Part shown: in pieces, positions 8,693 to 57,285 of the stretch
Layout of the letters: every line of letters begins with the position of its first letter
Numbering within the stretch: position 1 is the stretch's first letter
Source of the DNA: an uncultured Rhodothermales bacterium
GTDB lineage: Bacteria > Bacteroidota > Rhodothermia > Rhodothermales > UBA10348
Reading direction: 5' to 3'
DNA: 64,000 nucleotides
Assembly: GCA_964383365.1 (NCBI GenBank)
Contig: CAYLHF010000008.1
Coordinates: forward strand, 42,036-106,035
Made by a program: the position numbers and the translations under genes
The notes under the pieces: generated by a model
Database searches by the model: none
What the model was told of the DNA's origin: nothing
The model's input: the letters and a program-made list of their open reading frames with translations, nothing else

Positions 8693-10324
8693 ATGGAGAA
8701 CAAGAGCGCGTCCCGGCACGCTTTTTCAGATTTTTCTTCCTTTTCCCGCTTATTCTCGTCGTATACGCAGGACTTCGAATCGCTTGCCACGTATTTCGCG
8801 GGAGATTTCAGAGATCCGCGACAACGCGGGCAGATCGCCAGGCAAGTAGCGGAGCATTTTTCCGGGCGTAAAGAGTTGGTCGCTATTCTGCACGAACAGA
8901 ATACCCGATTCGGAACCGGAGATGCCACCCGTACCAATATCGATCGGCTGGGGAGCGACGATGCTGTCGCCATTGTAACGGGTCAACAACTCGGTCTCTT
9001 CGGCGGGCCGTTGTATACGATTCTCAAGACCATCACGACGATTCAGCTCGCCCGGAGACTGGAAAAGGACACGGGACGGTCGGTGGTACCGGTATTCTGG
9101 TTAGAGGGAGAGGATCATGATTTTGAGGAAGTTTCGACCGCATGGGTCTTCTCAGGCCAGCGGGTTGGTTCCGTCGCTTATACCGACGGCGACCATAGAG
9201 ACTCGAAAAATCCAGTTGGCCGTATCCTCTTCGATGACCGCATTCAGGCCACGATTAACCAACTTACGGACCTTCTCCCGCCGACTGATTTCCGGCCGGA
9301 GCTGTTGCGTTTACTGGAGTCGTGCTACCGCCCGGGTACGTCTTTTCTCGACAGTTTTGCCCGTCTGATGTGCACCTTGTTTTCGGACCAGGGGCTGGTT
9401 TTCATCTCAGGCGACGACCCGAGATTCAAGCAAAAAGCGAGCGGTCTTTTCAGGAAGGAAATTCTAGAATTCAAAAAACCGGAAGCCCTCCTGAACGAGA
9501 CGTCCCGGAAACTGAAAGAGGGCTTCCATGCCCAGGTTGCTTCTACTCCTCCCAATCTGTTTCTCCTGACGGACGAAGGACGATTTGCGGTCGTTGCGAC
9601 CAGATCCGGATTCGAATTAAAGGGAACCGGGCAGTCCTATTCCAGCGACGAGCTGATCGCTCTTCTTGACGCCGAACCGGAGCGATTCAGTCCGAACGTG
9701 GTTCTCCGACCACTGTATCAGGATACGCTCCTCCCGACAGCAGCGTATGTCGGAGGTCCCGGGGAAATTTCGTATTTCGCCCAATTCAGACAGATCTACG
9801 AGTGGGCCGGTATTCCCATGCCGATAATCTATCCGCGGGCAAGTGTGACCCTGGTCGAGAAGAAAATTGCGAAGGTATTGACTCAAATTGAAGCTCCACT
9901 ACCTTCGTTCTCGAAACCGGTAGATGCGCTGTTCCATGAACTGGTTGTCGAGGGGATGAAATTCGACCCGGACGCTCTCTTCGACGGAGCGTCCAGACAT
10001 ATCGGGCTGGCTATCGATGAGGTGCTACCGACTGTTGAGGAAATCGATCGGTCGCTAAAGAAGTCTGCGGAATCTACCAGGGCGTTGTTGCTCAAAGAAT
10101 GGGGCCGCCTGAAAGATCGAGTCATCAAGGCTGAAAAGAGGCGAAGTGAGCAGATGAAAGGCCAGCTTGAAAAGGTCGCAATAAACGTTTTTCCGAACGG
10201 AACGCTACAGGAACGGGTTATATCACCGTTGTACTTCCTGAACAAGTATGGTCCGGGGCTGATCTCGACGTTGCTGGATAACATCGACCTGGATACATCA
10301 CGACATCAGGAAATTCATCTCTGA
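8693..10324 (+). CDS. bshC: Bacillithiol biosynthesis cysteine-adding enzyme BshC
   Basis: 'IVTGQQLGLFGGPLYTILKTITTIQLARRLE', 'PVFWLEGEDHDFEEV' and 'SPNVVLRPLYQDTLLPTAAYVGGPGEISYFAQ'. Confidence 0.85.
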   Translation: MENKSASRHAFSDFSSFSRLFSSYTQDFESLATYFAGDFRDPRQRGQIARQVAEHFSGRKELVAILHEQNTRFGTGDATRTNIDRLGSDDAVAIVTGQQLGLFGGPLYTILKTITTIQLARRLEKDTGRSVVPVFWLEGEDHDFEEVSTAWVFSGQRVGSVAYTDGDHRDSKNPVGRILFDDRIQATINQLTDLLPPTDFRPELLRLLESCYRPGTSFLDSFARLMCTLFSDQGLVFISGDDPRFKQKASGLFRKEILEFKKPEALLNETSRKLKEGFHAQVASTPPNLFLLTDEGRFAVVATRSGFELKGTGQSYSSDELIALLDAEPERFSPNVVLRPLYQDTLLPTAAYVGGPGEISYFAQFRQIYEWAGIPMPIIYPRASVTLVEKKIAKVLTQIEAPLPSFSKPVDALFHELVVEGMKFDPDALFDGASRHIGLAIDEVLPTVEEIDRSLKKSAESTRALLLKEWGRLKDRVIKAEKRRSEQMKGQLEKVAINVFPNGTLQERVISPLYFLNKYGPGLISTLLDNIDLDTSRHQEIHL

Positions 10325-11064: not shown

Positions 11065-13770
11065 ATGGCTGACTACCCATTTTCATCGATAGAATCCCGC
11101 TGGCAATCCTTTTGGGAAGAGAATCGGACATTCAGAGTCGCCGATGTCCCCGATACGTCCAGACCAAAATTTTACGTGCTGGACATGTTTCCTTATCCCA
11201 GCGGTGTCGGACTGCATGTAGGGCATCCACTTGGATATATCGCGACCGATATCGTGGCCCGGTATAAGAGGATGAAGGGGTTCAACGTGTTGCACCCCAT
11301 GGGATTCGATGCATTCGGACTTCCCGCAGAGCAGTTTGCCGTCGAACATGGTGTGCATCCCAAGGTCACCACCGAGAAGAACATCGATAATATGCTCCGA
11401 CAGCTCAAGGCCATCGGCTTGAGCTATGACTGGGACCGAAAGATTGCCACGACGGACGTCGATTACTATCGGTGGACGCAATGGATTTTCCTCAAGCTGT
11501 ACAACAGCTATTACGATGACGAAAAAGGAGTAGCCAGGCCCATCGAGTCCCTGGTGGAACATCTGGAAAAACAGGACGAGACATTCAGATCATCAACGCA
11601 TTCGGAGCGCGAGCAGATCCTGTCAGGATATCGTCTGGCCTATCTCGCCGAGGTTCCGGTGAACTGGTGTCCCGCTCTGGGAACGGTCCTCTCGAACGAA
11701 GAGGTCACGAATGAAGGACGTAGCGACCGGGGGAATCATCCGGTCTTCAAGCGTCCATTGAAGCAGTGGATGCTTCGCATAACGAAATATGCGGATCGGC
11801 TTCAGGATGATCTCGATGGGGTAGACTGGCCGGAGCCTACCAAAATAATGCAACGCAACTGGGTCGGACGGAGTGAAGGCGCTCATGTCGATTTCGACGT
11901 TGCGGGGTTGGACGCCACCATCCGCGTGTTCACAACGAGACCCGATACCCTCTTTGGCGCAACGTACATGGTGCTCGCGCCCGAACACGAACTGGTCGAC
12001 CGTCTCGTTTCTCCCGACTATGCTGACGCAGTCCATGCGTACCGGAAGGAGGCATCCGCCCGGACCGACCGGGACCGGATGGCCGACTCCAGGAATAAGA
12101 CCGGGGTATTCACGGGATGCTTTGCAATCAACCCGGTCAATCAATCGAAAATCCCGATCTGGATTGCCGACTATGTCCTCATGGGGTACGGTACGGGGGC
12201 CATCATGGCCGTCCCGGGGCAGGACGAAAGGGACTGGGAATTTGCGAAGACATTTAGTCTTCCGATCATTCGAACGGTCCAGCCACCGGCTGATTTCGAC
12301 GGCGATGCCTATACAGGACCGGGGCCTGCCATCAATTCGGCATTTCTGGATGGACTCCAGATCGAGGAAGCCAAGTCCAAAATGATAGACTGGCTGGTGG
12401 AAAAAGGGCTGGGAGAAGGAACCATCACGTATAAGCTGCGGGACTGGTTGTTCAGTCGTCAGCGTTATTGGGGAGAGCCGTTTCCCATACTTCACGCGCC
12501 GGACGGATCCATCCGGGCGGTCGAGGAGACCGATTTACCGGTCACGCTTCCGCCCATGGACGACTTCCGTCCGACCGCATCAGACGACCCTGACGCCCCG
12601 CCGCGCCCGCCCCTCAGCCGCGCTCCTCAATCGTGGCGATACCCGGTGATCGATGGCGTCCGATACGAACGGGAATTAAATACGATGCCCCAGTGGGCGG
12701 GCTCTTGCTGGTACTATCTGAGATTTATCGACAACAACAATCAGGATCGGTTTATTGACCCTGGCAAGGAAGCCTACTGGATGGGGGACAACGGGGTCGA
12801 TCTGTATATCGGTGGGGTTGAACACGCAGTTCTACATCTGCTTTACGCACGATTCTGGCACAAAGTACTGTTTGATCTGGGGTACGTATCGTCGTCCGAA
12901 CCATTTGGCCGTCTGTTCAATCAGGGATACATTCAGGCCTATGCGTACCGGGATGCCCGTGGAATCGCCGTAGACGCAACGCGCGTCGTGGACCAGGACG
13001 GACACCCGGCGAATGAAGTTCAGGATCAGCCGAATCGCGAATTCTCGATCGATGGAGAACCGGTCACGCAGGAATATGGCAAGATGGGCAAAAGCCTGAA
13101 GAATGCGGTCGGTCCGGATGAAATCAACGAACGCTATGGCTGCGATACCCTTCGACTGTACGAGATGTACATGGGGCCGCTGGATGCATCCAAACCGTGG
13201 AATACCCGGGATATCATCGGAGTCAATCGCTTTCTGAGGCGCGTTTGGAGAAACTTCGTCGATGAGGATACCGATACGACCCTGGTCGGAGACGTAGAGG
13301 CGACGACGGAACTCCAGAAAGAACTCCATCGAACAATCGCGCGTGTATCGACCGATATGGAGCGTATGAGCTTCAACACGGCGATCGCCGCCCTCATCGA
13401 GTTTACGTCGCATCTTGTTCCTCTGGATTTGCTCCCGGTGACCGTTGCCGAACCGTTCGTCCTGATGTTGGCGCCGTTGGCCCCTCACATGGCAGAGGAA
13501 TTGTGGCATCGAATGGGGCATGCCGAATCCCTCGCCCATGAAGACTGGCCCGTCGTGAACCAACAGTTGCTCGCTTCAGATTCTGTCCGGATGGCCGTAC
13601 AGGTAAACGGTAAAGTCCGAACGACTATATCCGTAGGTCCGGAAGAGACAAAAGACGCTGTACTGGAACGCGCTAAAGCGGACGAGAATGTGGCGAGACA
13701 TCTGGAGGGAAAACAGATCCGACGGGAAATCGTGGTTCCGGGAAGAATCGTCAACCTGGTGGTCGGATGA
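11065..13770 (+). CDS. leuS: Leucyl-tRNA synthetase
   Basis: 'FPYPSGVGLHVGHPLGY' (HIGH region) and 'KMGKSLKN' (KMSKS region). A CP1 editing region is present. Length 901 aa. Confidence 0.97.
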   Translation: MADYPFSSIESRWQSFWEENRTFRVADVPDTSRPKFYVLDMFPYPSGVGLHVGHPLGYIATDIVARYKRMKGFNVLHPMGFDAFGLPAEQFAVEHGVHPKVTTEKNIDNMLRQLKAIGLSYDWDRKIATTDVDYYRWTQWIFLKLYNSYYDDEKGVARPIESLVEHLEKQDETFRSSTHSEREQILSGYRLAYLAEVPVNWCPALGTVLSNEEVTNEGRSDRGNHPVFKRPLKQWMLRITKYADRLQDDLDGVDWPEPTKIMQRNWVGRSEGAHVDFDVAGLDATIRVFTTRPDTLFGATYMVLAPEHELVDRLVSPDYADAVHAYRKEASARTDRDRMADSRNKTGVFTGCFAINPVNQSKIPIWIADYVLMGYGTGAIMAVPGQDERDWEFAKTFSLPIIRTVQPPADFDGDAYTGPGPAINSAFLDGLQIEEAKSKMIDWLVEKGLGEGTITYKLRDWLFSRQRYWGEPFPILHAPDGSIRAVEETDLPVTLPPMDDFRPTASDDPDAPPRPPLSRAPQSWRYPVIDGVRYERELNTMPQWAGSCWYYLRFIDNNNQDRFIDPGKEAYWMGDNGVDLYIGGVEHAVLHLLYARFWHKVLFDLGYVSSSEPFGRLFNQGYIQAYAYRDARGIAVDATRVVDQDGHPANEVQDQPNREFSIDGEPVTQEYGKMGKSLKNAVGPDEINERYGCDTLRLYEMYMGPLDASKPWNTRDIIGVNRFLRRVWRNFVDEDTDTTLVGDVEATTELQKELHRTIARVSTDMERMSFNTAIAALIEFTSHLVPLDLLPVTVAEPFVLMLAPLAPHMAEELWHRMGHAESLAHEDWPVVNQQLLASDSVRMAVQVNGKVRTTISVGPEETKDAVLERAKADENVARHLEGKQIRREIVVPGRIVNLVVG

Positions 13771-14528
13771 GCATGGATCGTGATCTCACCTATGATGTCC
13801 TCGCATTCGCGGCGCATCCCGACGATGTCGAACTCTTTGCAGGAGGCACCGTTTGCCGGCTCGTCGAACTCGGATACCGGGTCGGTGTCGTTGACCTGAC
13901 GCGGGGGGAGCTGGGGTCGCGAGGAACCCCTGAGATACGTGCCGATGAGGCGCGCGCAGCGACGTCTGCCATGGGCATAGGTGGACGATGGAATCTGGGG
14001 CTTTCGGATGGAGACATTCAGAATACGCCGGAGAATCGTCTACTCGTGATAAGGGAATTGCGGCGACATCGGCCCGATCTGCTGCTCATCAATGCACCTG
14101 AATGTCGCCATCCTGATCACGGCGCGGCCGCCAGGCTCGTCGGCGACGCCGTGTTTTACAGCGGACTGACTCGAATAGCGTGCGGGACTGAAGAAGGCGA
14201 CGAACTGCCCCCCTGGCGGCCGCACCACGTCCTGCACTACATGCAGAACGTGCCATTCGTGCCTACGCTCATCGTTGATGTCAGTGAATCGTGGGAGCGT
14301 CGAATGAAAGCAGTCATGTCGTATGCTTCTCAGTTTTACGATCCCGGGTCAGACGAGCCAGAAACGTTTATCTCGAATCCCGATTTTCTGAAGTGGATCG
14401 AGGCGCGGGCGCGAACGTATGGATACCGAATCGGAGCCACGTACGGAGAACCTTTCCTGTACCGCCATGGTCCCATGGGGACCGATGATCCGGTTGCCAT
14501 GTTAAGGAAGAAAAAACCCTTCAGATAG
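13767..14528 (+). CDS. bshB1: PIG-L family N-acetylglucosaminyl deacetylase, bacillithiol BshB1-like
   Basis: 'VLAFAAHPDDVELFAGGT', 'DLTRGELGSRGT' and 'HPDH'. Overlaps the leuS stop (ATGA). Confidence 0.75.
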   Translation: MSMDRDLTYDVLAFAAHPDDVELFAGGTVCRLVELGYRVGVVDLTRGELGSRGTPEIRADEARAATSAMGIGGRWNLGLSDGDIQNTPENRLLVIRELRRHRPDLLLINAPECRHPDHGAAARLVGDAVFYSGLTRIACGTEEGDELPPWRPHHVLHYMQNVPFVPTLIVDVSESWERRMKAVMSYASQFYDPGSDEPETFISNPDFLKWIEARARTYGYRIGATYGEPFLYRHGPMGTDDPVAMLRKKKPFR

Positions 14529-14533
14529 GGAGT

Positions 14534-16423
14534 TCAATTGTCCCAACTCAGCACGAATCGTGTGATTCCCTGAGATAGCTCGGGAAGTACCACCCGGACG
14601 GATTTATTGTCGTCATTCTCGTAGACTTTGCCGTCCCCCCCACTGATTCTGAAGTCACCCAGGTCCTTCTGTCTCGGAAATCGGATCTCCAGCGTTACTC
14701 CTGAAATGGGATCCGGCCAGTCATAATCGATATCTACGTACATCTCGTCCCTACCCAGAGATGTGATCAATGGACGAACGTGCGAACGCTTTCGCCACCA
14801 GATCAAAATTTCTGAAACGCTCGTGATCCAAGACCCGTCGAGACGCGCCCGACTCAACGTCGCCTCGAAATCAGCCGCCCGTACCGATCGGGCGTCATAG
14901 AGTTCAGGATAAAACGGAACCACGTACATCCCCCGCGCTTCGCGGATGATTTCATAGGTCGCTTCGAACGACGATGCCAGGTCCTCGGCCAGTGGAATCG
15001 TCGAGATAATCTTGGGGAGTGGAGGAGGGCCCGCCGGCGCCGCCTCTGCTGTCTGGCCGGGGACGAAGAGTGATACGGTTTCATCCGGTTCTTCCGGTTC
15101 TTTCAGCCGCTCCCGGTAGTCCACCTGGGACCACCAGTCCACGATACCCGGAGTCAGGCTGGGTGTGCCGGAGAGGACCATGTATTCGAGGCCCATGTTA
15201 TCCATTGTACGAACCGTATTGCCGTCATAGAATCCTCCAGGAGGATATAATCCGTGGGGTTTAGGAAGACCCAATTCCCCCATCGCCTGCATCAGTCGAC
15301 TGCGTTGAACTTCAAAAGGCTGACCTTTCAGGACGTGATCGTCCTCTCCGGCCAGGCCGATTTCGCCGTCATTGATGGCCCGTCCGTACAGATCCTGAAA
15401 CGACGTGATCTCGTCTGACGTGAAGAAAAATGTGGTATGGACGTGCTGTTCTTCGAGCACATCGAGCATATGCTCCAGACCATCGATATACTGAAGCGCA
15501 TTGAACCCGACGGAGGGAAGTGATGCAACGGAAAATGCGGTAGGATTCCCGTTCGGCCACGGCCCGACTGAAACAGTCGTCGAACCGACCAGGTCGGCTA
15601 TCGCGTTCACGACGAGTGTCTGATAGTGCTGCTGTTGCTCGGGTTCCTTGCTGACTTCGTGCGGATGAAAGCGAGACCAGAAATAACGTCCCTTTTCGCT
15701 TTCGCCGGTAAGAAGTAACGTTACATCGTCAAACGCTGCCTGATCATCCGGCTGATAGGCGGTCGGTCTCCCGACTGCTCGACTGGTACCCGGACGCGCT
15801 GCGGACATCGGGATCTGGGCGGCAATATTGAGACGGTACCCCATGGGAATTCCGTCCCCCAAAGGCGTATTTCCATCAATCGACTGGAGAATTCCAAACG
15901 GCTGCGACGGCAGGTTTTCCACATACTCGGCGCCGAACAGTTCTTCGAAGACGGCACCTCCACGTCGGACACCCTCTTCATCATAGACCCCGGTACGACC
16001 CGATGCGATAACACCGCCACCATCGTGCAGATAATCCACGATGCGATCTTTCTGCCTTTCGGACATCGACGCCACGCCCGGCAGAATAATCACCTTGTAA
16101 TCGGAGGAAATACCTCGCGAGAGATCTCGATCGTCCAGGACCCGGTACTTGAGCCGTAGTCCGAGCAGCAGCAGTTCCCAATAATACACGGCATCACGCA
16201 CGATGGCCTCTCCGTTGGGCACATACGTCGCCGTCTGATTGGACCGGAAGACGGCGATGTGAACGTCCGTATCCTCCCGCAACGCGTCAATATTGTGGGC
16301 TACGGTCCTCGATGGGGCTTCCATCTGAACGAATTGAGCGACCGCCTGCGCCCTGGCGGTCCTGACGCCGGGCGCACCCAGGAGAACAACCAGCAGTGGT
16401 ACTATGAATCGAGTCTTACGCAT
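14534..16423 (-). CDS. Secreted EPS-locus protein with an N-terminal class-I GATase/Glyco_hydro_42M-like domain and a NodB (polysaccharide deacetylase)-like domain
   Basis: Signal peptide 'VPLLVVLLGAPGVRTARAQA'. 'VIILPGVASMSERQKDRIVDYLHDGGGVIASGRTG' resembles GATase-like folds. 'HTTFFFTSDE...GRAINDGEIGLAGEDDH' has NodB-like spacing, but no canonical TFDDG motif is evident. It is a paralog of the adjacent 768-aa protein and the last gene of the operon. Confidence 0.55.
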   Translation of the reverse strand: MRKTRFIVPLLVVLLGAPGVRTARAQAVAQFVQMEAPSRTVAHNIDALREDTDVHIAVFRSNQTATYVPNGEAIVRDAVYYWELLLLGLRLKYRVLDDRDLSRGISSDYKVIILPGVASMSERQKDRIVDYLHDGGGVIASGRTGVYDEEGVRRGGAVFEELFGAEYVENLPSQPFGILQSIDGNTPLGDGIPMGYRLNIAAQIPMSAARPGTSRAVGRPTAYQPDDQAAFDDVTLLLTGESEKGRYFWSRFHPHEVSKEPEQQQHYQTLVVNAIADLVGSTTVSVGPWPNGNPTAFSVASLPSVGFNALQYIDGLEHMLDVLEEQHVHTTFFFTSDEITSFQDLYGRAINDGEIGLAGEDDHVLKGQPFEVQRSRLMQAMGELGLPKPHGLYPPGGFYDGNTVRTMDNMGLEYMVLSGTPSLTPGIVDWWSQVDYRERLKEPEEPDETVSLFVPGQTAEAAPAGPPPLPKIISTIPLAEDLASSFEATYEIIREARGMYVVPFYPELYDARSVRAADFEATLSRARLDGSWITSVSEILIWWRKRSHVRPLITSLGRDEMYVDIDYDWPDPISGVTLEIRFPRQKDLGDFRISGGDGKVYENDDNKSVRVVLPELSQGITRFVLSWDN

Positions 16424-16432
16424 TCGCTTCCG

Positions 16433-18739
16433 TTAGTTCTTGGCGAAGCGGGCGGAGTACTCCGGTCCCAGCAGGTCGATGTGGAAAATCCGATACTGTT
16501 GCGGTTTCAGCTCTTTGATAGACAGTTCCAGCACGGTCCCGTTTTCTTTGAGCTGGTATGGTGGAATATCGATATCGTCGGGTATCGGTTTGAAAATATT
16601 GATCAACTCCGGTCGGATGTGAACCGACGTCGCGGGTAGGCCAAGCGAAATACTCACCGTCGCGTGTTCGGCTGTGTGTCCGTTGTCATTCGACACCCGG
16701 ACAAAAATACGAGATGGGCTTCTCTGTTCAACATCCGCATTCAATCCCTTGTGAATGCGCCACCAGGCAGCAATCGAATCGCCTGATGCGATCCAGAAAT
16801 TGTCCTGCTTCAGTCGGCGAACGATCGTTCTGAGCGTCCCCAGATTGGACGTATTTCCGAGCAGTTCGGGAGAGTAAATAAGGTTGTAGAGACTGCCTTC
16901 GTATTGAATACGATTCAAACTTTCGAGCATGAGACCGGATACCAGGTCGGGGGATTGACCCTCCAGACCGTTCATGATATCCCGGTCACTCTTGACCGTC
17001 ACGCCGATCCTTGTAAGAGTTTCAAATGGAAATCCCATAATTTTCGGAACGTTTCGACGGCCGATGGAATCAGGAATGAAGTAGGTGTAGTCGGATTCGG
17101 TCAGGCCGCCCATCGTGTTCCGGCCCAGTATTCCCCGTTCGGTCGAACGATAGCCGCGTACCGGTCCACCCACGACTCCCTCGAGCATGGTTCGAAGTCG
17201 ATTCAGGCGCCGCTGCTGTTTCTCCACGGTTCCGTCCGCCTCGACGCGAAGTGAGTCATAGACCCCGACGTCTCCCTGTTTATAGAGTCGTCGCAGGAGT
17301 TGACCATGTCTGGAAGCCTGTTCGGGCGGAACCAGGTAGGTACCGGGAACGCCCTCCTCATCGAGTACGTCTGCAACCGCCCTGAACCCGTCAATCGCAT
17401 TCTCTGTGGTTCCCGTAATCATGGCTGCGGCTTCATGCGGGTACGGCCAGTCGTGCATCCATATGATGGGCTGACGGCGGAGATAATTGATCACGTTCGC
17501 AGAGAAAATTCCAAGCCTTTGCCAGTCCTCAACGTCCCGGGGGCCCGTTCCCATGGCATTTCTCTGGAACCCCATGTACACAAATCGACCCTTTCCGTAT
17601 GTCCCGTAAACGAGACCGGTCGAACCGTCTATTATATCGCTTCCGCCGAAGTCATCCGTAGCAAAATCATACCAGAAACCGGCAGCTGCGACTCGGTCGG
17701 GTTCCCGGACACTCACCCGGACTCCCGGATTGTACACCTGGATTTTTACCCGATAACCACTCGGAATTACCGCCGTAAGTGGTGTATTTCCGCGCCATGT
17801 AAAACGTCTTATCCCGGCACTCGTCCGGGGATAGGGAATTTCCTGTTTGCGATCACCGCCCGTCCAGGTAAAATAGGTTACCAGTACGGCATCCTGTACT
17901 TCTACGCGCCCATCCAGCCCCCTGAGAGGTGCCGTAATATTCCAGGCCCGGGCAAAATCAACCGTCGGACGAGCCGAATTCAACGTGTCAAACCACGCGT
18001 AATCCTGCAATGGTGCGAAATCGGCGTCTTCTGCCAGACGCTGGTTTACCTCTCTGAGTTGTGCCTGTTCTTCATCAACCGGAGCGAAAACGCCTTCATT
18101 ACTCTTATTGAAAATATAATCCGGCACATAGATTCCTTCGGGGGTATGACCCGGGAACGTGTCTGCATAGATTCGATAGTTTCCGACTCCGCGCTCGACA
18201 AACCCTTCGAAATTGACTCCGAACGTATCCTCGATAAAGTCCCAGCCACGCCAGGTCCCGTCTTCGTAGTAGACTCCGGCAGTCCAGGAAGCGAGGACGC
18301 TGCCGCCGTTATTCATGAACTCCTGAATGCGTGCAATCTCACGATCGCTCATGGCCCGAACAGACGGAAGAATCAGCACATCGAATTTGTCCAGATCGCC
18401 ATACTCCAGATCCTCGTCGTTGATATCCATGAACGGAATTCGACGATCCTTGTCGATTAAAAATTCACGCCAGGACAGGAGGGTCTGGTCGACCCAGGTC
18501 GTTGTCGTATCCCGTAGATTCAGCGCTCTGTGGGCGCGTCGGGTATAGTCGCTGTTAAGAAGAGCTACCCGCGGGCGGTTGTCTACACCGATCTGCGTCG
18601 GAGAGGCCTCCGTTATACTGAATGCGCCGAGGGCACTCTCGAGAAGCAAAATGTATACAAGGATTCCTGCCGCCAGTGCCGTCACACCCAGCGTCAGGAA
18701 CCAGAATACATTTATTCTATCGAGTCGTGCTACCCGCAT
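16433..18739 (-). CDS. Membrane-anchored EPS-locus protein, paralog of 14534..16423 (GATase-like plus degenerate NodB-like domains)
   Basis: N-terminal anchor 'FWFLTLGVTALAAGILVYILLL'. 'DVLILPSVRAMSDREIARIQEFMNNGGSVLASWTAG' parallels the neighbouring protein. The region 'AAAMITGTTEN...GVPGTYLVPP...KQGDVGVYD' aligns to NodB motif positions but is degenerate. Confidence 0.55.
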   Translation of the reverse strand: MRVARLDRINVFWFLTLGVTALAAGILVYILLLESALGAFSITEASPTQIGVDNRPRVALLNSDYTRRAHRALNLRDTTTTWVDQTLLSWREFLIDKDRRIPFMDINDEDLEYGDLDKFDVLILPSVRAMSDREIARIQEFMNNGGSVLASWTAGVYYEDGTWRGWDFIEDTFGVNFEGFVERGVGNYRIYADTFPGHTPEGIYVPDYIFNKSNEGVFAPVDEEQAQLREVNQRLAEDADFAPLQDYAWFDTLNSARPTVDFARAWNITAPLRGLDGRVEVQDAVLVTYFTWTGGDRKQEIPYPRTSAGIRRFTWRGNTPLTAVIPSGYRVKIQVYNPGVRVSVREPDRVAAAGFWYDFATDDFGGSDIIDGSTGLVYGTYGKGRFVYMGFQRNAMGTGPRDVEDWQRLGIFSANVINYLRRQPIIWMHDWPYPHEAAAMITGTTENAIDGFRAVADVLDEEGVPGTYLVPPEQASRHGQLLRRLYKQGDVGVYDSLRVEADGTVEKQQRRLNRLRTMLEGVVGGPVRGYRSTERGILGRNTMGGLTESDYTYFIPDSIGRRNVPKIMGFPFETLTRIGVTVKSDRDIMNGLEGQSPDLVSGLMLESLNRIQYEGSLYNLIYSPELLGNTSNLGTLRTIVRRLKQDNFWIASGDSIAAWWRIHKGLNADVEQRSPSRIFVRVSNDNGHTAEHATVSISLGLPATSVHIRPELINIFKPIPDDIDIPPYQLKENGTVLELSIKELKPQQYRIFHIDLLGPEYSARFAKN

Positions 18740-18753
18740 CAGTTGTTTCGTTC

Positions 18754-19167
18754 TTATAGCCAGGCATATCCGTCATCTGGCTTCCGCTCAGACTCCCGAT
18801 TATCTTCCTGGCGGCCAGGTTCTTCAGGACGAACGGGCACGAAGCCCTCGTCCGTGTATTCCCAGAAAAGAGAATTTTGCGGTTCAGGCGCCTGAACCTG
18901 AGGCTGGACTACAACCGGGGGCGCTGTTGTCTGCGTCGCCGGTGCGACGTAGACATTGGTCTGCGCCGGCTGGGCCTCGATGGCCGCGACCTGCTGCTGA
19001 GGAGTCAACAACACGTGCGGCTCGCGCTGAGCAATGGACGTGGCACCGCCTTCCTGATACGAGCGACGCTCGCGGATCTTGTACAGGATGTACGCGGCAA
19101 CGGCCAGGATAAATGTCGCGATCGTACCGACAAGGATGATCGTTGATAAAATTGGAACGAGTTCCAT
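18754..19167 (-). CDS. Small single-pass membrane protein with Q/P-rich tail (possible PgaD-like accessory subunit)
   Basis: 'MELVPILSTIILVGTIATFILAVAAYILYKIRERR' followed by the low-complexity 'QQQVAAIEAQPAQTN...PPVVVQPQVQAPEPQ'. The stop is 14 nt upstream of the next gene's start. Start chosen at Met 19167; the listed ORF begins at 19224. Confidence 0.5.
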   Translation of the reverse strand: MELVPILSTIILVGTIATFILAVAAYILYKIRERRSYQEGGATSIAQREPHVLLTPQQQVAAIEAQPAQTNVYVAPATQTTAPPVVVQPQVQAPEPQNSLFWEYTDEGFVPVRPEEPGRQEDNRESERKPDDGYAWL

Positions 19168-19388: not shown

Positions 19389-20930
19389 TCATTTTGGAGA
19401 ACCGGAGCCGATGCGCTCCAACTTGCCCCAGTTCATTCCGAATCCGAGAAATTCTTCAACGGTGGCGAGCGTCTTGCACACGTCCACGATCAAAATGAAG
19501 AAGAGCCGATAGAACAGGGAATAAAAAACGAGTCGGACTTCTTCTTTCTCAACCGCTACGCAATACAGTGCTGCGATCAGATCCAGAATGGTCAGCGACA
19601 ACCACCAGTAGACGATGTAGTAACTCATCTTGAATACCAGTGCGATAAAAATAAAATAGGCGTTCGCAAAAATGTTCATGATGGGCCAGATCAATGCTTC
19701 AAAAGCCATCGACCACATCACGATCGTTCCACCAAAATTGATCGTAGGATTAAAAAACAGGTCCCGATGTTTGCGGACAGCCTGAATGATTCCTCGCGTC
19801 CAGCGATACCGCTGCTTCAGAAGGTCAACGATCGTATCCGGGGCTTCGGTGTACGAGCGGGCGTCCGGCTCATATTCTACCCGCCAGCCGGCACGGATAA
19901 TTTTCAACGTGATGTCGGCATCCTCTGCAAACGTATCCGAGCTGTACCAGCCGGCATCGACGATCGCCTGCTTGCGAAACATCCCGAGCGGTCCAGGAAT
20001 GATGTTGACGAGTTTCACGATGCTCTGCGCCGAACGGGCCATATTCAAACCTTCGACGTACTCAAGCGCCTGAAGCGTCGTCCAGATATTATTCCTGTTC
20101 AGAACCTTAACGTTACCGGCGATGGCCCCCAGACGAGGGTCCACAAAATGCCGGATAGTTTTCCTGAGCGTGTCTGGAGAGAGTAGAGAGTCTCCATCGA
20201 CATTCAGTACAAAATCATATCGAGAAACCTGGATTCCGGCATTCAAGGCAGTAGCTTTCCCTCCATTCGGCTTCTGAACGAGTCGCACATCGACCGCACC
20301 GTCCCGATACGTGCCGATCACACCCTGGCCGACCCCTCTCGTATCGTCGGTTGAGCCATCATCGACCAGCAGGATCTCGTACCGCGGATAATCCATCTCG
20401 AGCAGAGATGCAACGGTACTTCGGAGAAGCTTACCCTCGTTGTAGGCCGGTACGATGATGGATACCGGTGGCAGGAAGGTATGGTCGTGTCCGGTTTCGA
20501 TCGTGTGTTTGGTCGTATTCAAATACGCCATGTTCATCAACGACAGATACCGGAACAGCAGAATTACGAGAAATAGTACGAGTGCAACGATCGAGGAATA
20601 CACAATCAATCCGCTCCAGCGGAGCTTACTCTCCCATCCGGTCAGCTTTAACAGATAGCCACCCGGATCGCGCACGAAAATATAAATGATGGCAAACAGG
20701 ATGAGCGAAATCAATCCGTATACGACGATTCGCCGGAGTAGCTGTGATTCCGATTCTCGTGCCGTCGGGCGATCGTCCTCTGGCCTCTTGATGGGCTGGA
20801 AAACCGTCTTTTCGACAGACTGTCCGGTCGACGTAACGAGAGCGGTTCCAGTGGAATGTTCCACAGGAACCAATCGCTCACGGGCATTCGACTCGCTGTC
20901 AGGTGATATGTTGTTTTCAGTTTCCATCAT
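19389..20930 (-). CDS. Family-2 processive glycosyltransferase (PgaC/IcaA/cellulose-synthase-like EPS synthase)
   Basis: 'VSIIVPAYNEG', 'LLVDDGSTDDT', 'GGKATALNAG', 'NVDGDSLL', 'FAEDADIT' and 'QRYRWTRG' (QxxRW). Transmembrane helices lie before and after the catalytic domain. Confidence 0.85.
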   Translation of the reverse strand: MMETENNISPDSESNARERLVPVEHSTGTALVTSTGQSVEKTVFQPIKRPEDDRPTARESESQLLRRIVVYGLISLILFAIIYIFVRDPGGYLLKLTGWESKLRWSGLIVYSSIVALVLFLVILLFRYLSLMNMAYLNTTKHTIETGHDHTFLPPVSIIVPAYNEGKLLRSTVASLLEMDYPRYEILLVDDGSTDDTRGVGQGVIGTYRDGAVDVRLVQKPNGGKATALNAGIQVSRYDFVLNVDGDSLLSPDTLRKTIRHFVDPRLGAIAGNVKVLNRNNIWTTLQALEYVEGLNMARSAQSIVKLVNIIPGPLGMFRKQAIVDAGWYSSDTFAEDADITLKIIRAGWRVEYEPDARSYTEAPDTIVDLLKQRYRWTRGIIQAVRKHRDLFFNPTINFGGTIVMWSMAFEALIWPIMNIFANAYFIFIALVFKMSYYIVYWWLSLTILDLIAALYCVAVEKEEVRLVFYSLFYRLFFILIVDVCKTLATVEEFLGFGMNWGKLERIGSGSPK

Positions 20931-21001: not shown

Positions 21002-24000
21002 TCATAAGGTCCAGTACAATGCCGCCGAAAATGTAAACGTGTTATACCGATCGATGAATGACCCGGCCCCACTACCGAGCGTCCGGGTTGACTGGCTCAT
21101 CGCCGTCCGCGCAGTGAGCGAAAAATTGCCTCCTAGCCGCTTGATTAGATCGGCCTCTATGCGTCTATTTACAAATCCTGCACTCTGCGCGATGACACCG
21201 ATCGATCCCCTGACCCGGATGTACCACTTGGTTCGAAGCTCGCGTTCATACTCGAGAAACATGTCGTACGTCGTGTACGCTCGGGGCGAGAAATACGTAT
21301 CGACGGTCGTTCGATAGTTGATCGCGTAATATGTCACTCCGAGATACGTGTAATCCACGATGCGGTACCCACCTTCGAGCCGAAGCGACGTTCCGAAGTT
21401 CGTATCGCTGTTTGACGCTGTATTGCCAAAGTTATCGCTCACGATATTGAAGGCCAGCGCACCTTGTACCCGGAGTACCGAGTCGGCCATGATGGTCGCA
21501 CTGCTTCCTTTCAAATCAAACTGTGTCAGCCGCAAATTGAATTGCCCGCCTCCCGGTGACCAGAGTTCAATCGAACCTTCGCCGGTATGCACCCCTATCG
21601 AGGCCTGATATTTTCCAAGCTCCTGTTTCCAGTATCGAAGACCACCGTAACCGACGGTCCTGGCACCCTCATAGTCATACAATCCGATCTCCCCGGATAT
21701 CCGGTTGGAAAAACTCGCCCGATCCGACGGCACAGGTGGCGTCAGGTCGATGTATCCACCGGCAAATATCTGATTGACGCGGCCGCGAACGATTTCTGAT
21801 CCAGGAACCAGACGGCGCGAACCACTGATGAAATGCGAGTTGACACCGGCCGTCAATACGACATCGATCGGTATCGTCACCTGTGTCTGCATTCCCTGGG
21901 CCCAGCGATCATACCGGGTGCCCCCGCCACGACTCCGAACGGCGTCGGTTGTCGGCACAACGATACCGGCAAAATCATAGCCGAGCCATTCGCCACTCTC
22001 GAGAAGAGTGGTCCTGACATCGGCACCGATCGCCACTTTGGTGTCTTCGATCATCTTCGAGTCTTCGGCCAGCATCTGGGCTTCGTTGTAGATGTCCTCC
22101 GCCTCGGCATAGAGGCCCAGGGCACGAAGTGCGTCCGCCTGCATGAATCGAACTTCGTAATCTCGCGGGTTTCTCACCTGAAGCTGTTCGAGCGCAGACA
22201 GTGCTCCTGAGTAATCTTTCCTCAGAATGCGGGTTCGTGCCATTTCTTTACCTACATCGTAGGCGAACTGCTGCTGCTGAAGCGCCTCAAGAATAGCCAA
22301 CGCATCGTCATATTTCGCCGCTGCCGTATAGACCTGGGCCAGTTCTTTGAGTTCGGCACGCGTGCGGCGTCCTCTCAATTCGAAATATCGGTCGTATGAA
22401 GCAATGGCATTGTCATACCGTTTCGCTGCCGTATAGCGCCGGGCCTCGTTGAGCACCGCTACCTGCGCCTCCTCATTGAGACGGATCTTTTCTCTGGCGA
22501 TCAAATGCCGGAGTGTCTGTATTTTTTCTATAAACCGTGGATCTCCTACTCTCTCGGCCATATCCACAAGGCGGCTCGCATCCTCGACGGCTGTTTGAAG
22601 CAATCGGTAATCGGCCGCGTCGAGAATGAGTTCACTATCCTCTGCGTACGGTCCGGCGAGAAGCGATGCGAGGTAATTTTCGCCCCGGTCATCGAGTTCT
22701 CTGTTCGACAATTCGGAGAGAACGAAGAGCCGTTGAAACTCCGTGTTGTCTGGATTCTGATCTACCAGGTACCTCGCCTGTTCGACGGCCTGTTTCCGGT
22801 ATCCATTCAGCCTGAGCGTATCCACATAGCGGGCCCGGAGCGGAAAATTTTCGGGCTGGAGGCCGATAAGCTGTACATACGCACGAATGGCATCGTCTAT
22901 TCGATCAACGATCTGGTATTGATCGATAATCTCGAGGAGTTCGTCTGTCGCGCTCGAATCCGAAGCAATTATGGGTTCGAGTTCTCGAATTCTGCGACGC
23001 GCATAATCGAGTCGCGCTGCCTTGATGGCTACCAGTCTTCCCCGATATCCTTCCTCGGCTGGATTGGTATGCGCAGGATCAACGAGTACATCGAGAGCTT
23101 CAGAGAATCGCTTGGCGTTGACGAGTTCATCGACGAGCTGATAGCGCGTCATGATGTCGTCGGGCTGGAATCGGAGTCGATACGTCAGACGGTCTATCGG
23201 AAAGAGCGGCGACTTCCCGCCGGTCGAGACGAATCCATTGTCGGTCTGGATAAAGAGTGAGAGCCACCGATCCGTCGTGCCGTAGTCTTTTTCCAGTTTC
23301 AGCAGTTGATCGTAGGCTTCTCCGTAGCGCTTGTACTTGTTCAGTTGCTCAACGAGTTTGAAGCGGGTTTCGGCGTTTCCGGGATCCCGTTCAAGAGCCC
23401 GGTAGAGTCGGTCAACGATGAATGTCGACGGCCTGTTTGGAGAGGGCTCTGTCTGCAGCCTGTTTTCGACCAGGAGCGATCGTTTCGTCCATTCAGGAGA
23501 TCCCTGATACCGTGGTTTCAGGTACGTCAGATTCTGCTGGGCTTCAAAATATCTTCCGTCATCGATCAGTAAATCGATCAACTGGAATCGTTTCCCATCC
23601 TGATTGGGGTCTGCCCGGAGTTCCCGGGTAAGTACGTCGATCGGATACTGAGATTGTGTTCCTGCGAGTCCGGGTTGGTCTCCATAATCAGAACACTTTT
23701 CCGCCTCTGTGTTATTCGGATTCAGTCGGAGTGCCTGTTCGCAGGCTTCCTTGGCCAGACGATATTTCCCCTGCCAGAGACGGAAATAGCCGAGTCGCAT
23801 GTACAGATCATCGTTGTTCGTGTAGATCTTTACATATTTCTGAGCGGTTCTCTCGCCCAGCGCGTTGTCTCCCTCGTAATTGGCGATCGCTATCAGATAG
23901 GACTGTACAACGTCCGGGGTTCCCTGTGTCTTTCGGAGATACTCTCCATACTGATCGGCAGCCTGTCTGAACAGTCGTGCCTCAAACAGGGCATCTGCAT

Positions 24001-24415
24001 ACCGAATTCGATACGATAAATTGGTCGGGTTAGCGGCGACGAGCCGCCTCATACTCTCCAGGTTGCCCCGGTTTCGTGCGACGGTCTGCTGCTGAGATCG
24101 GCGGAGTCCATTCCGAGCCTCCACGTGGGCGGGATTCAATTCCAGAATTCGCTCATAGTCCTTTGCTGCAGAAGCGAAATCGCGCCGACCCTCATGCGCG
24201 GCGGCCCGTATCAATAGCGGACGAGGGTCCTTCGATTCGGGTGTAATCAAGGTGTTCAGCAGGGCAATTGCCTCCTGAAAACGTCCTTGCGTTACCAGAC
24301 GTTCTGCACGGTCCTGTGCGGCGATATCCTGTGAAAAGGCTTCTCCCACCGGGACGAGAACCCAGATGGAGACCAGGACTACCAGCACTGTCAATCGGCG
24401 GATCATAGCGATCAC
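21002..24415 (-). CDS. Large TPR-repeat protein with C-terminal beta-barrel (PgaA/BcsC-like EPS export porin)
   Basis: Signal peptide 'LTVLVVLVSIWVLVPVGEAFSQD'. About 750 aa of TPR-like helical repeats. The last ~350 aa show an alternating beta-strand pattern ('GTSLRLEGGYRIVDYTYLGVTYYAINYR...FTFSAALYWTL'). Confidence 0.7.
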   Translation of the reverse strand: MIAMIRRLTVLVVLVSIWVLVPVGEAFSQDIAAQDRAERLVTQGRFQEAIALLNTLITPESKDPRPLLIRAAAHEGRRDFASAAKDYERILELNPAHVEARNGLRRSQQQTVARNRGNLESMRRLVAANPTNLSYRIRYADALFEARLFRQAADQYGEYLRKTQGTPDVVQSYLIAIANYEGDNALGERTAQKYVKIYTNNDDLYMRLGYFRLWQGKYRLAKEACEQALRLNPNNTEAEKCSDYGDQPGLAGTQSQYPIDVLTRELRADPNQDGKRFQLIDLLIDDGRYFEAQQNLTYLKPRYQGSPEWTKRSLLVENRLQTEPSPNRPSTFIVDRLYRALERDPGNAETRFKLVEQLNKYKRYGEAYDQLLKLEKDYGTTDRWLSLFIQTDNGFVSTGGKSPLFPIDRLTYRLRFQPDDIMTRYQLVDELVNAKRFSEALDVLVDPAHTNPAEEGYRGRLVAIKAARLDYARRRIRELEPIIASDSSATDELLEIIDQYQIVDRIDDAIRAYVQLIGLQPENFPLRARYVDTLRLNGYRKQAVEQARYLVDQNPDNTEFQRLFVLSELSNRELDDRGENYLASLLAGPYAEDSELILDAADYRLLQTAVEDASRLVDMAERVGDPRFIEKIQTLRHLIAREKIRLNEEAQVAVLNEARRYTAAKRYDNAIASYDRYFELRGRRTRAELKELAQVYTAAAKYDDALAILEALQQQQFAYDVGKEMARTRILRKDYSGALSALEQLQVRNPRDYEVRFMQADALRALGLYAEAEDIYNEAQMLAEDSKMIEDTKVAIGADVRTTLLESGEWLGYDFAGIVVPTTDAVRSRGGGTRYDRWAQGMQTQVTIPIDVVLTAGVNSHFISGSRRLVPGSEIVRGRVNQIFAGGYIDLTPPVPSDRASFSNRISGEIGLYDYEGARTVGYGGLRYWKQELGKYQASIGVHTGEGSIELWSPGGGQFNLRLTQFDLKGSSATIMADSVLRVQGALAFNIVSDNFGNTASNSDTNFGTSLRLEGGYRIVDYTYLGVTYYAINYRTTVDTYFSPRAYTTYDMFLEYERELRTKWYIRVRGSIGVIAQSAGFVNRRIEADLIKRLGGNFSLTARTAMSQSTRTLGSGAGSFIDRYNTFTFSAALYWTL

Positions 24416-24498: not shown

Positions 24499-25944
24499 TT
24501 AAGACTGATCCAGGGCGTAGCTGAGAAACTCCTCTGCCGACTGAAAAGGCCGCCCATCTGGAACAACAATGGCAGAAACAGAATGAAGGAGATGATCGGC
24601 CTGTTGCGGAGAATCCTGCCGGAGTCGTTCTTTCAGTCGCGCGAAGAAACTCTGGGCTTCCTCGGGGCGACTTTCGCCAAGAAATACAATCAAGCGCTCC
24701 TGTGATAGATCAGAGAGCATATCATCCTGTGGACGAAGCGCGGCCCGGACCAGGTCCATCAAAAAATCAAAGTCGAACGGACGAGCCGAGGCGTCTTTCC
24801 GATCCATCCTCATGGCCAGCAGAAGAAACGGCTGTAGACCTGATTCACGCATCAGAAACTTCTGCTGCAGACGTAACCGGAACGTCTCACGATCGGTCAC
24901 ATCTGGTAGTCGATCGGTCGCTGTCGGCTGCTCAATTTCGGCTTCCGTAGCTGAACTATGAACGAATTCATCGGCCGGAGGAGGCGTAGTGGGTGAGGGT
25001 ACGTCAGCCGAAGGAGGGGCGTATGGCTCGGTCGGAGCATATGCAGCAGGCCGCTCTGGCGGCGCGGAATACGTTGGAGGTGCGGGCTGCGCTGCCGCCT
25101 GGTAAGCCGGTTGCGTGGGGCCCGGGGAAGTCTGTGTTGCGGGGCCCTGGGAAGCCTGTGTTGCAGGCCCGGGTTCTGCATAGACCGTATGTGCCTCCGT
25201 TGGCGCTCCGCCGCGATCGGGTGTCCCCGAAGTCGACGCGTCTTCGACCACATCCTCGAGGTCCCAGTAGTCCACGACCTGTCGTTTGATGTGTCCGATG
25301 TGCGGAACAAGCGTCACACGACGCTTCGTCGTTGTCGGATTCTCGTCCGCCAGTTCGATATGAATTGATCCGGTCATCTGCATCGACATGAAATCAATCA
25401 CGCGGCGCGACTGCTGATTTGCGGGTTCGGGCATGACGACCATCAGTGTCGTCTCGAGCGAGTCGATCTGTTCCAGAAACTGGATAAACTCGACTCTGAA
25501 TCGATCGAAGGACCGGAAGGCTACAAACGGAAGAAAGTCGTTCATCACCAGACGGGTCGGACGGTGCTTCCGGATAAGACCGATGAGATCCCAGAGTGCC
25601 TTGGATACCCCGTCATCTCCCATCTGCTGTACGTTCATGAGGGGTGGGACGCGCATGAGTCGAACGATACCACTCTCGTAAGCATGTCTGAGATTGAATC
25701 CGATCGAAGCGGCCTGAATGATGAGGTCCTTCTGGCGATCGGCTGAGATAAAGAGGGTTGGTTCCCGAAGCGTCGCCCCGGTTCGTGCGAACATAAGCGT
25801 TAACAGCCCACGACCACTGGCCGCTTTACCATAAACGAGGTAGGACCCACCGCGATACAATCCACCCCAAGCGTTGTCGATCACATCGATGCCCGACAGG
25901 TGCTTTGGAGCAAATGCTACTGAGGAGACTGTAGTCGCGTTCAT
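24499..25944 (-). CDS. RecA/KaiC-like domain (degenerate P-loop), Pro-rich linker, and degenerate GGDEF-like domain with RxxD; putative c-di-GMP-sensing EPS regulator
   Basis: The N-terminus 'GIDVIDNAWGGLYRGGSYLVYGKAASGRGLLTLMF' resembles KaiC/Rad55, but the Walker A is GKAASGRG with no GK[ST]. The linker is 'GPATQASQGPATQTSPGPTQ...'. The C-terminus 'RPQDDMLSDLSQERLIVFLGESRPEEAQSFFARLKERL' aligns to GGDEF-domain 'RxxD-x5-GGDEF-vvil...' with GGDEF replaced by LSQER. Confidence 0.55.
   Translation of the reverse strand: MNATTVSSVAFAPKHLSGIDVIDNAWGGLYRGGSYLVYGKAASGRGLLTLMFARTGATLREPTLFISADRQKDLIIQAASIGFNLRHAYESGIVRLMRVPPLMNVQQMGDDGVSKALWDLIGLIRKHRPTRLVMNDFLPFVAFRSFDRFRVEFIQFLEQIDSLETTLMVVMPEPANQQSRRVIDFMSMQMTGSIHIELADENPTTTKRRVTLVPHIGHIKRQVVDYWDLEDVVEDASTSGTPDRGGAPTEAHTVYAEPGPATQASQGPATQTSPGPTQPAYQAAAQPAPPTYSAPPERPAAYAPTEPYAPPSADVPSPTTPPPADEFVHSSATEAEIEQPTATDRLPDVTDRETFRLRLQQKFLMRESGLQPFLLLAMRMDRKDASARPFDFDFLMDLVRAALRPQDDMLSDLSQERLIVFLGESRPEEAQSFFARLKERLRQDSPQQADHLLHSVSAIVVPDGRPFQSAEEFLSYALDQS
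25117..25164 (-). repeat. Intragenic 24-nt tandem repeat (2 full copies plus a partial) encoding the octapeptide GPATQ(A/T)S(Q/P)
   Basis: Plus-strand units 'ggggcccggggaagtctgtgttgc' and 'ggggccctgggaagcctgtgttgc' are 22/24 identical and are followed by a partial third unit. Confidence 0.8.
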
Positions 25945-26007: not shown

Positions 26008-26344
26008 AGTTTCGGAAAACAAGCGCAAACGGTCTGATATGGACAATTTCCTACGTCCCGCCCTCTATTATCGCCTGAAATCTCACTTTTTCAACCCCCG
26101 GGATCACTATTTCGAGACCAAAGACCAATCTCTATTTGAGATTATCCTTCCCAGAACGGGGAAGTTCCGGTTGAAAACCATCACAATGCACAGTTGTTGC
26201 TACCTGGGACTATGGATATTTGATTTTGGTCCGATACTTGTCTTTACATAATGAGCCAACGTGCTCCAACACGCCACACAACCTGTTCCAGTGTCGAAAG
26301 CCACAACGACCATCATGCACAGATATTCTCGATTAGGGATCCAT

Positions 26345-57264: not shown

Positions 57265-57285
57265 TGACCATGTCCTATCCATAAG

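Follow-up and report, generated by a model that had tools for sequence, protein, structure and literature searches.

A pseudo-KaiC protein with a degenerate GGDEF domain heads a predicted Pga-like exopolysaccharide operon in Rhodothermales and is a candidate cyclic di-GMP-responsive subunit

In a 64,000-nucleotide stretch of DNA from an uncultured Rhodothermales bacterium (GenBank assembly GCA_964383365.1, contig CAYLHF010000008.1, positions 42,036 to 106,035; hereafter the window, in which coordinates are counted from the first letter), the first gene of an exopolysaccharide (EPS) operon encodes a protein of 481 amino acids (aa) that joins a pseudo-KaiC domain, a proline-rich linker, and a degenerate GGDEF domain. 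The open reading frame (ORF) starts with ATG and occupies 24499..25944 on the minus strand, and its product is predicted to be soluble, with no transmembrane (TM) segment and no signal peptide. The domain assignments, which had been made by eye in a preliminary description of the sequence, are genuine and not chance resemblances, because Pfam, profile, AlphaFold2 (AF2), and Foldseek evidence was obtained for both domains. By analogy with known receptors of cyclic di-GMP (c-di-GMP), it is tentatively proposed, with somewhat less than even confidence, that the protein acts in the cytosol as a regulatory subunit of a Pga-like synthase: the pseudo-KaiC domain would dock or oligomerize and the degenerate GGDEF domain would sense c-di-GMP, thereby activating the complex of a glycosyltransferase family 2 (GT2) synthase and a small membrane protein, p156. 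An identical protein is on record in a JGI marine metagenome contig and in an ENA assembly, and literature searches for a prior description of this pseudo-KaiC–GGDEF family found none.

The C-terminal domain (aa 351–481; 24502..24894, minus strand) is assigned as a degenerate PelD-like GGDEF-fold domain from AF2, Foldseek, and the Pfam matches of family members. In the AF2 model of aa 345–481, which has a predicted local distance difference test score (pLDDT) of 88 and a predicted TM-score (pTM) of 0.83, the secondary structure elements follow the order alpha0-beta1-alpha2-beta2-beta3-alpha3-beta4-alpha4. The top Foldseek match of this model in the PDB was PelD (4dmz_A; E=3.6e-5, query-normalized TM-score (TMq) 0.64, 21% identity), followed by further PelD entries and by over 30 GGDEF domains of diguanylate cyclases with probabilities of 0.99–1.00. 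Because these matches consist of PelD and many GGDEF domains, the GGDEF/nucleotidyl-cyclase fold is confirmed at the level of the predicted structure. The fold was settled solely by structure prediction and Foldseek, since the sequence methods were marginal. The window protein reached only E=0.045 and 14.4 bits (14.4–17.1) against the Pfam model GGDEF_2 (PF17853), which is below the cut-off of 24.5, and gave no match to PF00990; a search of the PDB sequences by hmmsearch with a profile of the C-terminal domain returned nothing relevant. Across 33 diverse family members, GGDEF_2 matched 29 (best 2e-6), GGDEF matched 12 weakly (best 3e-4), and PelD_GGDEF matched 8 (best 0.003); the three models belong to one Pfam clan. 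GGDEF_2, the model matched by most members, represents the non-catalytic GGDEF-like fold of PucR/CdaR-type regulators, which differ in possessing a helix-turn-helix domain and acting on transcription, whereas the 481-aa protein has no DNA-binding domain.

The view that this domain retains a GGDEF fold and has lost its catalytic motif, as put forward in the preliminary description, is thus upheld by structure prediction and Foldseek. In the beta2–beta3 hairpin, the position of GG(D/E)EF is occupied by LSQER (aa 413–417; 24694..24708, minus strand), as judged from direct reading and the hhalign register. In the AF2 model, beta2 spans aa 408–412 and the hairpin aa 413–416, and beta3 starts from R417 (nt 24694–24696, minus strand), which is 94% conserved in the family. 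A second conserved Arg of the domain, R379, lies on beta1 (nt approximately 24808–24810, minus strand), and a well-conserved C-terminal segment, SAIVVPDGRPF...EFLxYALD, was recognized in the family alignment. The connection between beta1 and alpha2 is about seven residues shorter than in active cyclases according to the hhalign alignment, which was used for register only, and the GTP-binding P-loop/alpha1 element is therefore missing.

The loop between alpha2 and beta2 contains RPQD (R404–D407; 24724..24735, minus strand), an RxxD motif at the position of the inhibitory site (I-site) by direct reading, AF2, and hhalign. RPQD directly precedes beta2 and is separated from LSQER by exactly five residues (DMLSD), as had been noted beforehand; all the other motif strings singled out at that stage are likewise present at the spacing given, including LIVFLGESRPEEAQSFFARLKERL after LSQER. 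In the hhalign alignment with DgcZ, which is not significant alone, R404 and D407 fall on the RxxE I-site, and S414–L418 fall on GGEEF. R436 of helix alpha3 (nt 24637..24639, minus strand) falls on the alpha3-helix Arg of DgcZ in the same alignment, again not significant alone. The probability of the alignments to DgcZ alone and to four GGDEF sequences from the PDB was below 1%, and they were used for the register beside the secondary structure of the model. We take the alpha3 Arg of DgcZ to be equivalent to R390 of PleD and R402 of PelD, that is, the secondary I-site Arg. Because c-di-GMP binding by PelD needs R367, D370, and R402 (PMC8461298) and putative counterparts of all three are present, the 481-aa protein appears to carry a complete candidate I-site consisting of R404, D407, and R436.

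PelD of Pseudomonas aeruginosa (PDB 4dmz, 4dn0, 4etz, and 4euv) is therefore the best structural match of the C-terminal domain, with TMq values of 0.64–0.67 at 19–21% identity. Both domains are devoid of the GGDEF motif and of the P-loop/alpha1 segment and share an RxxD motif ahead of the hairpin, with an Arg downstream of it, and both proteins are encoded in synthase-dependent EPS operons. In contrast, PelD is a membrane protein with four TM helices and a GAF domain that works with the GT4 enzyme PelF, while the present protein is soluble, has a pseudo-KaiC domain instead, and is encoded with a GT2 synthase. Moreover, the sequence likeness to PelD is marginal, and RxxD is not found throughout the present family.

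The conservation of the candidate I-site was evaluated in a close set at the level of Rhodothermales (119–120 sequences) and in an extended family of 246–247 sequences. Arg occupies position 404 in 93 of 119 close homologues (78%) and in 136 of 246 sequences of the extended family (55%), in which Gly is found in 51. D407 is present in 118/119 and 206/247 sequences, and R436 in 98/119 (82%) and 140/247 (57%), respectively; the full triad occurs in 95/247 sequences of the extended family (38%). Among the close homologues, R404 is clearly more conserved than its neighbors P405 and Q406 (approximately 45–54%). Across the family, R404 and R436 tend to be found together, at an odds ratio of 3.4 when phylogeny is ignored. 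Conservation of RxxD in orthologues, which had been set in advance as a test of the I-site, thus gave a mixed outcome, with RxxD at 78% in the close set, 55% in the extended family, and none in Ignavibacteria. The I-site reported earlier as intact is accordingly upheld for the 481-aa protein itself and does not hold as a trait of the family.

The N-terminal domain (aa 10–240; 25225..25917, minus strand) adopts a KaiC/FlaH fold and is predicted to be catalytically dead on the basis of Pfam, profile, AF2, and Foldseek analyses. The Pfam KaiC model (PF06745) covers aa 17–207 with E=2.1e-14 and 53.9 bits, above its curated threshold of 26.6. A profile of 61 family sequences retrieved KaiC chains from the PDB at E=3e-24, and the full-length protein matched KaiC and RecA only when searched against the PDB sequences by phmmer. 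In the full-length AF2 model, aa 10–240 have pLDDT values above 95, and the best Foldseek matches of the domain were FlaH (ArlH; 4yds, target-normalized TM-score (TMt) 0.75) and KaiC at E of approximately 1e-11. The KaiC/RecA fold with a degenerate P-loop that had been recognized by eye is therefore in agreement with Pfam, the PDB searches, and Foldseek. Active KaiC/RecA ATPases possess the Walker A motif GxxxxGK[ST], with which the domain does not comply in the KaiC alignment: the corresponding segment, GKAASGRG (aa 39–46; 25807..25830, minus strand), has R45 in place of the P-loop Lys and G46 in place of Ser/Thr. The degeneracy extends further than the preliminary description had stated, because the Walker B Asp is replaced by N135 and the catalytic E77/E78 pair of KaiC by D69/R70 in the residue alignment. 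The altered P-loop is conserved among homologues: Arg is found at position 45 in 116/119 homologues, G44 in 119/119, and R70 in 116/120, and position 46 is Gly in 92, Asp in 15, and Ser in 6 of 119. Since the replacement residues are themselves highly conserved, the sequences indicate that the pseudo-ATPase state is fixed rather than a product of decay. The ignavibacterial orthologues (loci L058–L075 of the survey described below) differ in having a near-canonical Walker A motif, G(K/R)T, and a Walker B motif, hhhhDE, although the Glu pair has been lost in them too. These orthologues, with near-canonical Walker motifs and no RxxD, show the reverse of the combination found in Rhodothermales. 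The domain also differs from KaiC and FlaH in context, which is neither a clock nor an archaellum, besides the substituted catalytic residues of the Rhodothermales form.

The two domains are connected by a disordered linker rich in Pro, Ala, and Thr (aa 241–350; 24895..25224, minus strand; pLDDT below 50). The 114-aa stretch of aa 236–349 consists of 22% Pro, 19% Ala, and 13% Thr, and the linker varies in length from 29 to 420 aa across the family at a steady Pro content of approximately 21%. When the C-terminal domain profile was searched against 1.84 billion representative proteins, only 166 clusters were retrieved, in which the domain always forms the extreme C-terminus and the same N-terminal domain is present in nearly all full-length matches. 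The sequence data thus indicate that, in this small family, the pseudo-KaiC and degenerate GGDEF domains are obligately paired. The annotations of homologues name Rhodothermales or metagenome-assembled genomes (MAGs) of Bacteroidota, and a scan with one genome per GTDB species yielded 72 loci, all from Rhodothermales/Bacteroidota MAGs or Ignavibacteria.

In approximately 35 loci from Rhodothermales and Ignavibacteria, the pseudo-KaiC–GGDEF gene is accompanied by the full operon, which comprises, in a conserved order, genes for a tetratricopeptide repeat (TPR) protein, the GT2 synthase, p156, p768, and p629, even though the operon proteins of the two lineages are merely 24–33% identical. The pseudo-KaiC–GGDEF gene is always first, co-oriented, and separated by short gaps with no intergenic terminator match. 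In the window, all of the following genes are on the minus strand. The second gene (21002..24415) encodes a 1137-aa protein with a signal peptide, TPRs, and a beta-barrel-like C-terminus of the PgaA/BcsC/PelB export type. It is followed by the gene for the 513-aa GT2 synthase (19389..20930), which has 2+3 predicted TM helices and is nearest to PgaC/IcaA; its score against TIGR03937 (PgaC) was 202 bits, which is below the equivalog cut-off of 422, but this is still the best-scoring family. Two large periplasmic proteins of the envelope complete the set: the p768 gene (16433..18739) encodes a 768-aa protein in which an N-terminal membrane anchor is combined with a GH42M-like region and a weakly matching polysaccharide-deacetylase region, and the last gene of the block (14534..16423) encodes p629, a 629-aa secreted carbohydrate esterase family 4 (CE4) polysaccharide deacetylase with a signal peptide. 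From these gene contents, the block is assigned to the Pga-like synthase-dependent systems, with an N-acetylated polymer as its product. It resembles PgaABCD/IcaADBC in the TPR and beta-barrel export protein, the 2+3 TM helices of the GT2 synthase, the small membrane protein after the synthase, and the CE4 deacetylases, and differs in that the GT2 score is below the PgaC equivalog level and that p156 has one TM helix instead of two and was not found to resemble PgaD. The E. coli system relies on direct binding of c-di-GMP to PgaC–PgaD and has no soluble degenerate GGDEF partner (PMC8461298). No PilZ or other known c-di-GMP module was detected in the operon products.

Between the GT2 and deacetylase genes, p156 (18754..19167, minus strand) encodes a single-pass membrane protein of 137 aa counted from M20. 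It was found in 34 of 35 full operons, and its TM helix is 75–82% identical between Rhodothermales and Ignavibacteria, which is far above the conservation of any neighbor. The tail is variable, of low complexity, and disordered, with the C-terminal motifs (F/L)x(E/K)YT(D/S/E)EG(F/Y)(V/I)P and, at the terminus, W-L or W-R, which read YTDEGFVP and AWL in the window. In three loci, L011 (11485–12591), L032 (12162–12608), and L055 (approximately 424), p156 directly follows the pseudo-KaiC–GGDEF gene, and the genes for the TPR protein, the GT2 synthase, and the deacetylases are missing. That the two genes are retained together suggests that p156 is directly linked to the regulator, for which it may serve as a membrane anchor in the manner of BcsF.

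The resemblance to BcsE is one of architecture. The N-terminal domain of BcsE is RecA-like, was modelled on KaiC, and has a ruined Walker A motif; its degenerate GGDEF domain has the I-site R415xxD418 and PelD as the closest structural relative, and both PelD and BcsE are deleted for the P-loop/alpha1 element (PMC7439463). The outline of BcsE in the preliminary description, a degenerate RecA-like N-terminal domain plus a degenerate GGDEF domain with an I-site, is therefore correct (PMC7439463). Furthermore, the single-pass protein BcsF recruits BcsE via the N-terminal domain of the latter, and the GGDEF domain of BcsE binds BcsQ independently of c-di-GMP (PMC7439463). Like the 481-aa protein, BcsE is a soluble operon leader with a degenerate RecA/KaiC-like domain and an RxxD-bearing degenerate GGDEF domain, and a small single-pass protein is encoded in each operon (BcsF and p156, respectively). 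The parallel drawn in the preliminary description consequently stands for the pair of dead modules and not for what lies between them, which is a REC-like domain with a second I-site in BcsE and a disordered Pro-rich linker here. The two systems also differ in partners, since no genes for BcsQ or BcsR are present in this operon, in the synthase, which is the PilZ-containing BcsA in one case and PgaC-like in the other, and in phylum. The lack of obvious sequence relatedness remarked on earlier was borne out: the BcsE model PF10995 gave no match to the window protein, and the hhalign probabilities were below 1% both for E. coli BcsE and for a profile of 108 BcsE sequences. The best local alignment is in structural register, pairing R379 with R397, R404xxD407 with R415xxD418, and R417 with R426, which in BcsE are invariant in the 108 enterobacterial sequences aligned, but it is not significant. 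In a column-shuffle control with BcsE 349–523, the best alignment shrank to a 10-column beta1 segment, and 24 of 200 shuffles equalled its score; no specific kinship with BcsE is claimed for this reason. Together with the PF10995 and hhalign results, the shuffles led to the rejection of membership in the BcsE family, and the resemblance reflects either convergence or extreme divergence.

Based on these analogies, a possible mode of action can be proposed. The pseudo-KaiC domain would serve as an oligomerization and docking module, possibly on the conserved cytosolic tail of p156 as BcsE docks on BcsF. The degenerate GGDEF domain would bind c-di-GMP at R404/D407/R436 in the source organism and most Rhodothermales, and its c-di-GMP-bound form would switch on the inner-membrane synthase complex, as do PelD and BcsE. 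In the source organism, the protein is plausibly responsive to c-di-GMP. The c-di-GMP checkpoint for EPS secretion envisaged in the preliminary description retains the support of the two folds and the PelD/BcsE analogy, and is weakened by the patchy I-site and about nine loci at which the gene stands without the EPS block.

Several observations weigh against c-di-GMP control of EPS synthesis. The I-site Arg is missing in 45% and the full triad in 62% of the extended family, and the alignments that map R404, D407, and R436 to known I-sites are not significant alone. Ignavibacterial orthologues retain the operon and have D-K-K-D instead of RxxD and a hairpin shorter by two residues; therefore, the canonical I-site is not a universal mechanism of the family. 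The best-conserved charged residues of the domain, R379 (95%) and R417, are located on the side of the former active site and not at the I-site. Searches by phmmer and hmmsearch detected no canonical GGDEF gene among the ORFs in all six frames of the window and of 76 related loci (1.28 Mb), but this sample is so small and redundant that it does not establish the absence of c-di-GMP enzymes. Pfam analysis of 30 further ORFs of the window gave no GGDEF, EAL, HD-GYP, or PilZ domain, and literature searches on c-di-GMP in Rhodothermales or Ignavibacteria found nothing usable. In addition, at the solo loci, namely L005 (Rhodocaloribacter litoris CP076718.1), L017, L025, L030, L031, L037, L053, L055, and L078 (Roseithermus sacchariphilus CP030158.1), the intact gene with its conserved motifs adjoins a convergent PIG-L/leuS pair as if the five-gene EPS block had been excised, and none of the 100 homologues retrieved with p768 was attributed to the named solo species. 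Because these loci keep the gene in the absence of the EPS block, a role confined to an EPS checkpoint is not secure.

A c-di-GMP-independent adaptor or scaffold is a less probable explanation, though one of appreciable weight. Both dead folds would be reused purely for protein contacts, the pseudo-KaiC domain by oligomerizing and the degenerate GGDEF domain by binding a partner, so as to assemble or stabilize the synthase complex, and RxxD would be a relic in some lineages. It would account for the absence of the I-site Arg in nearly half of the family and in all operon-keeping Ignavibacteria, and for the top-ranking conservation of R379, R417, and the SAIVVPDGRPF...EFLxYALD segment as surface candidates. 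It has a precedent in the c-di-GMP-free contact between the BcsE GGDEF domain and BcsQ (PMC7439463), and it fits with the failure to see a diguanylate cyclase in the sampled DNA. It is, however, at odds with the conservation of R404 above that of P405 and Q406 in the close homologues, with the tendency of R404 and R436 to be retained or lost jointly, and with the nearest structure, PelD, being a proven c-di-GMP receptor.

A more elaborate scheme, in which the regulatory input is lineage-specific, is speculative and rather improbable. In this scheme, the Fibrobacterota–Chlorobiota–Bacteroidota (FCB) group would have independently built a BcsE-like checkpoint for a synthase of the poly-N-acetylglucosamine (PNAG) type from a ring-forming pseudo-KaiC domain, a long disordered linker, a PelD-like degenerate GGDEF domain, and an anchor in the p156 tail (YTDEGFVP...W). 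The input in Ignavibacteria would be a nucleotide at the KaiC P-loop, in line with G(K/R)T, hhhhDE, and the absence of RxxD, and that in Rhodothermales would be c-di-GMP at the I-site, where the P-loop is destroyed and R404/D407/R436 are present.

A switch that senses ATP, GTP, or another ligand without hydrolysis, through the pocket of the N-terminal domain or the former GGDEF active site, could tie EPS production to energy or precursor status; this is unlikely. The altered P-loop with its invariant G44 and nearly invariant R45 and R70 is unlike a decaying site, the Walker motifs are retained in Ignavibacteria, and the conserved R379 and R417 line the former active site (A-site). FlaH, the top structural match of the N-terminal domain, is a regulator that binds ATP and hydrolyzes it little or not at all. 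Nevertheless, the joint changes of Lys to Arg, Thr to Gly, Asp to Asn, and Glu-Glu to Asp-Arg in the Rhodothermales form normally abolish Mg-ATP binding, and the degenerate GGDEF domain is devoid of the P-loop/alpha1 segment that holds GTP.

Slightly less likely still is a general regulator that is not dedicated to EPS and merely adjoins the EPS block in some genomes. The motif-bearing gene at the solo loci and the partial loci L006 and L044–L048, at which the TPR gene alone is kept beside the pseudo-KaiC–GGDEF gene, could be explained in this manner. Such a regulator is difficult to reconcile with a gene order shared by two phylum-level lineages across about 35 loci at such low protein identity, with the invariable first, co-oriented, and closely spaced position of the gene, and with the occurrence of the C-terminal domain in no other architecture. 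Finally, activity as a diguanylate cyclase or a KaiC-like ATPase/kinase, for which nothing but the folds themselves speaks, is very improbable and was rejected on motif grounds, since GG(D/E)EF is replaced by LSQER with R417 within the motif, the P-loop/alpha1 element is lost, and the Walker A Lys, the Walker B Asp, and both catalytic Glu residues are substituted.

Further features were recorded in the surroundings. In the 316-bp divergent intergenic region 5' of the ORF, a sigma-70-like promoter match (10/12; 26067..26094, minus strand) was found by consensus only, and matches of this kind are as numerous there as expected by chance. Nothing was found when the window was scanned for tRNAs and Rfam families. 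The JGI copy of the locus (L001; contig of 3300002231) is 99.8% identical to 14503–35943 of the window, from which it differs by 35 mismatches and 5 indels. In this copy, the TPR and p768 genes are each broken up into several gene calls, which reflects either assembly errors or strain variation, and the corresponding ORFs of the window are intact. The EPS block is flanked by PIG-L and leuS (11065–14528) near bshC. The PIG-L deacetylase gene (13767–14528, plus strand) abuts the block, and because a homologue of BshC, which is involved in bacillithiol synthesis, is encoded nearby (8693–10324, plus strand), the PIG-L gene is probably bshB-like and outside the EPS operon. Signaling genes are present elsewhere: the product of 2725–5424 is 899 aa long and ends in a SpoIIE/PP2C phosphatase domain, and a sigma-70 region-4 protein, an unassigned 255-aa ORF, and a 911-aa TPR-CHAT (caspase-like) protein are encoded in this order at 56470–60713 (plus strand).

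Synthase-dependent EPS systems are main targets of c-di-GMP control, and their degenerate GGDEF partners are already known from PelD and BcsE of Proteobacteria; the present family is new in its architecture, in its lineage (FCB group), and in having a PgaC-like partner synthase. The family would carry the regulatory logic of PelD and BcsE to Rhodothermales, Ignavibacteria, and a PNAG-like system. If a dead RecA-like domain was joined to a dead GGDEF domain twice independently, in this family and in BcsE, a functional rationale for the combination would be suggested. The natural series from an intact P-loop with no I-site to a dead P-loop with an I-site could show how regulatory inputs are exchanged in evolution. 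Even if c-di-GMP is not bound, the protein would still be a conserved, uncharacterized component of an EPS machine that is widespread in marine and sediment settings.

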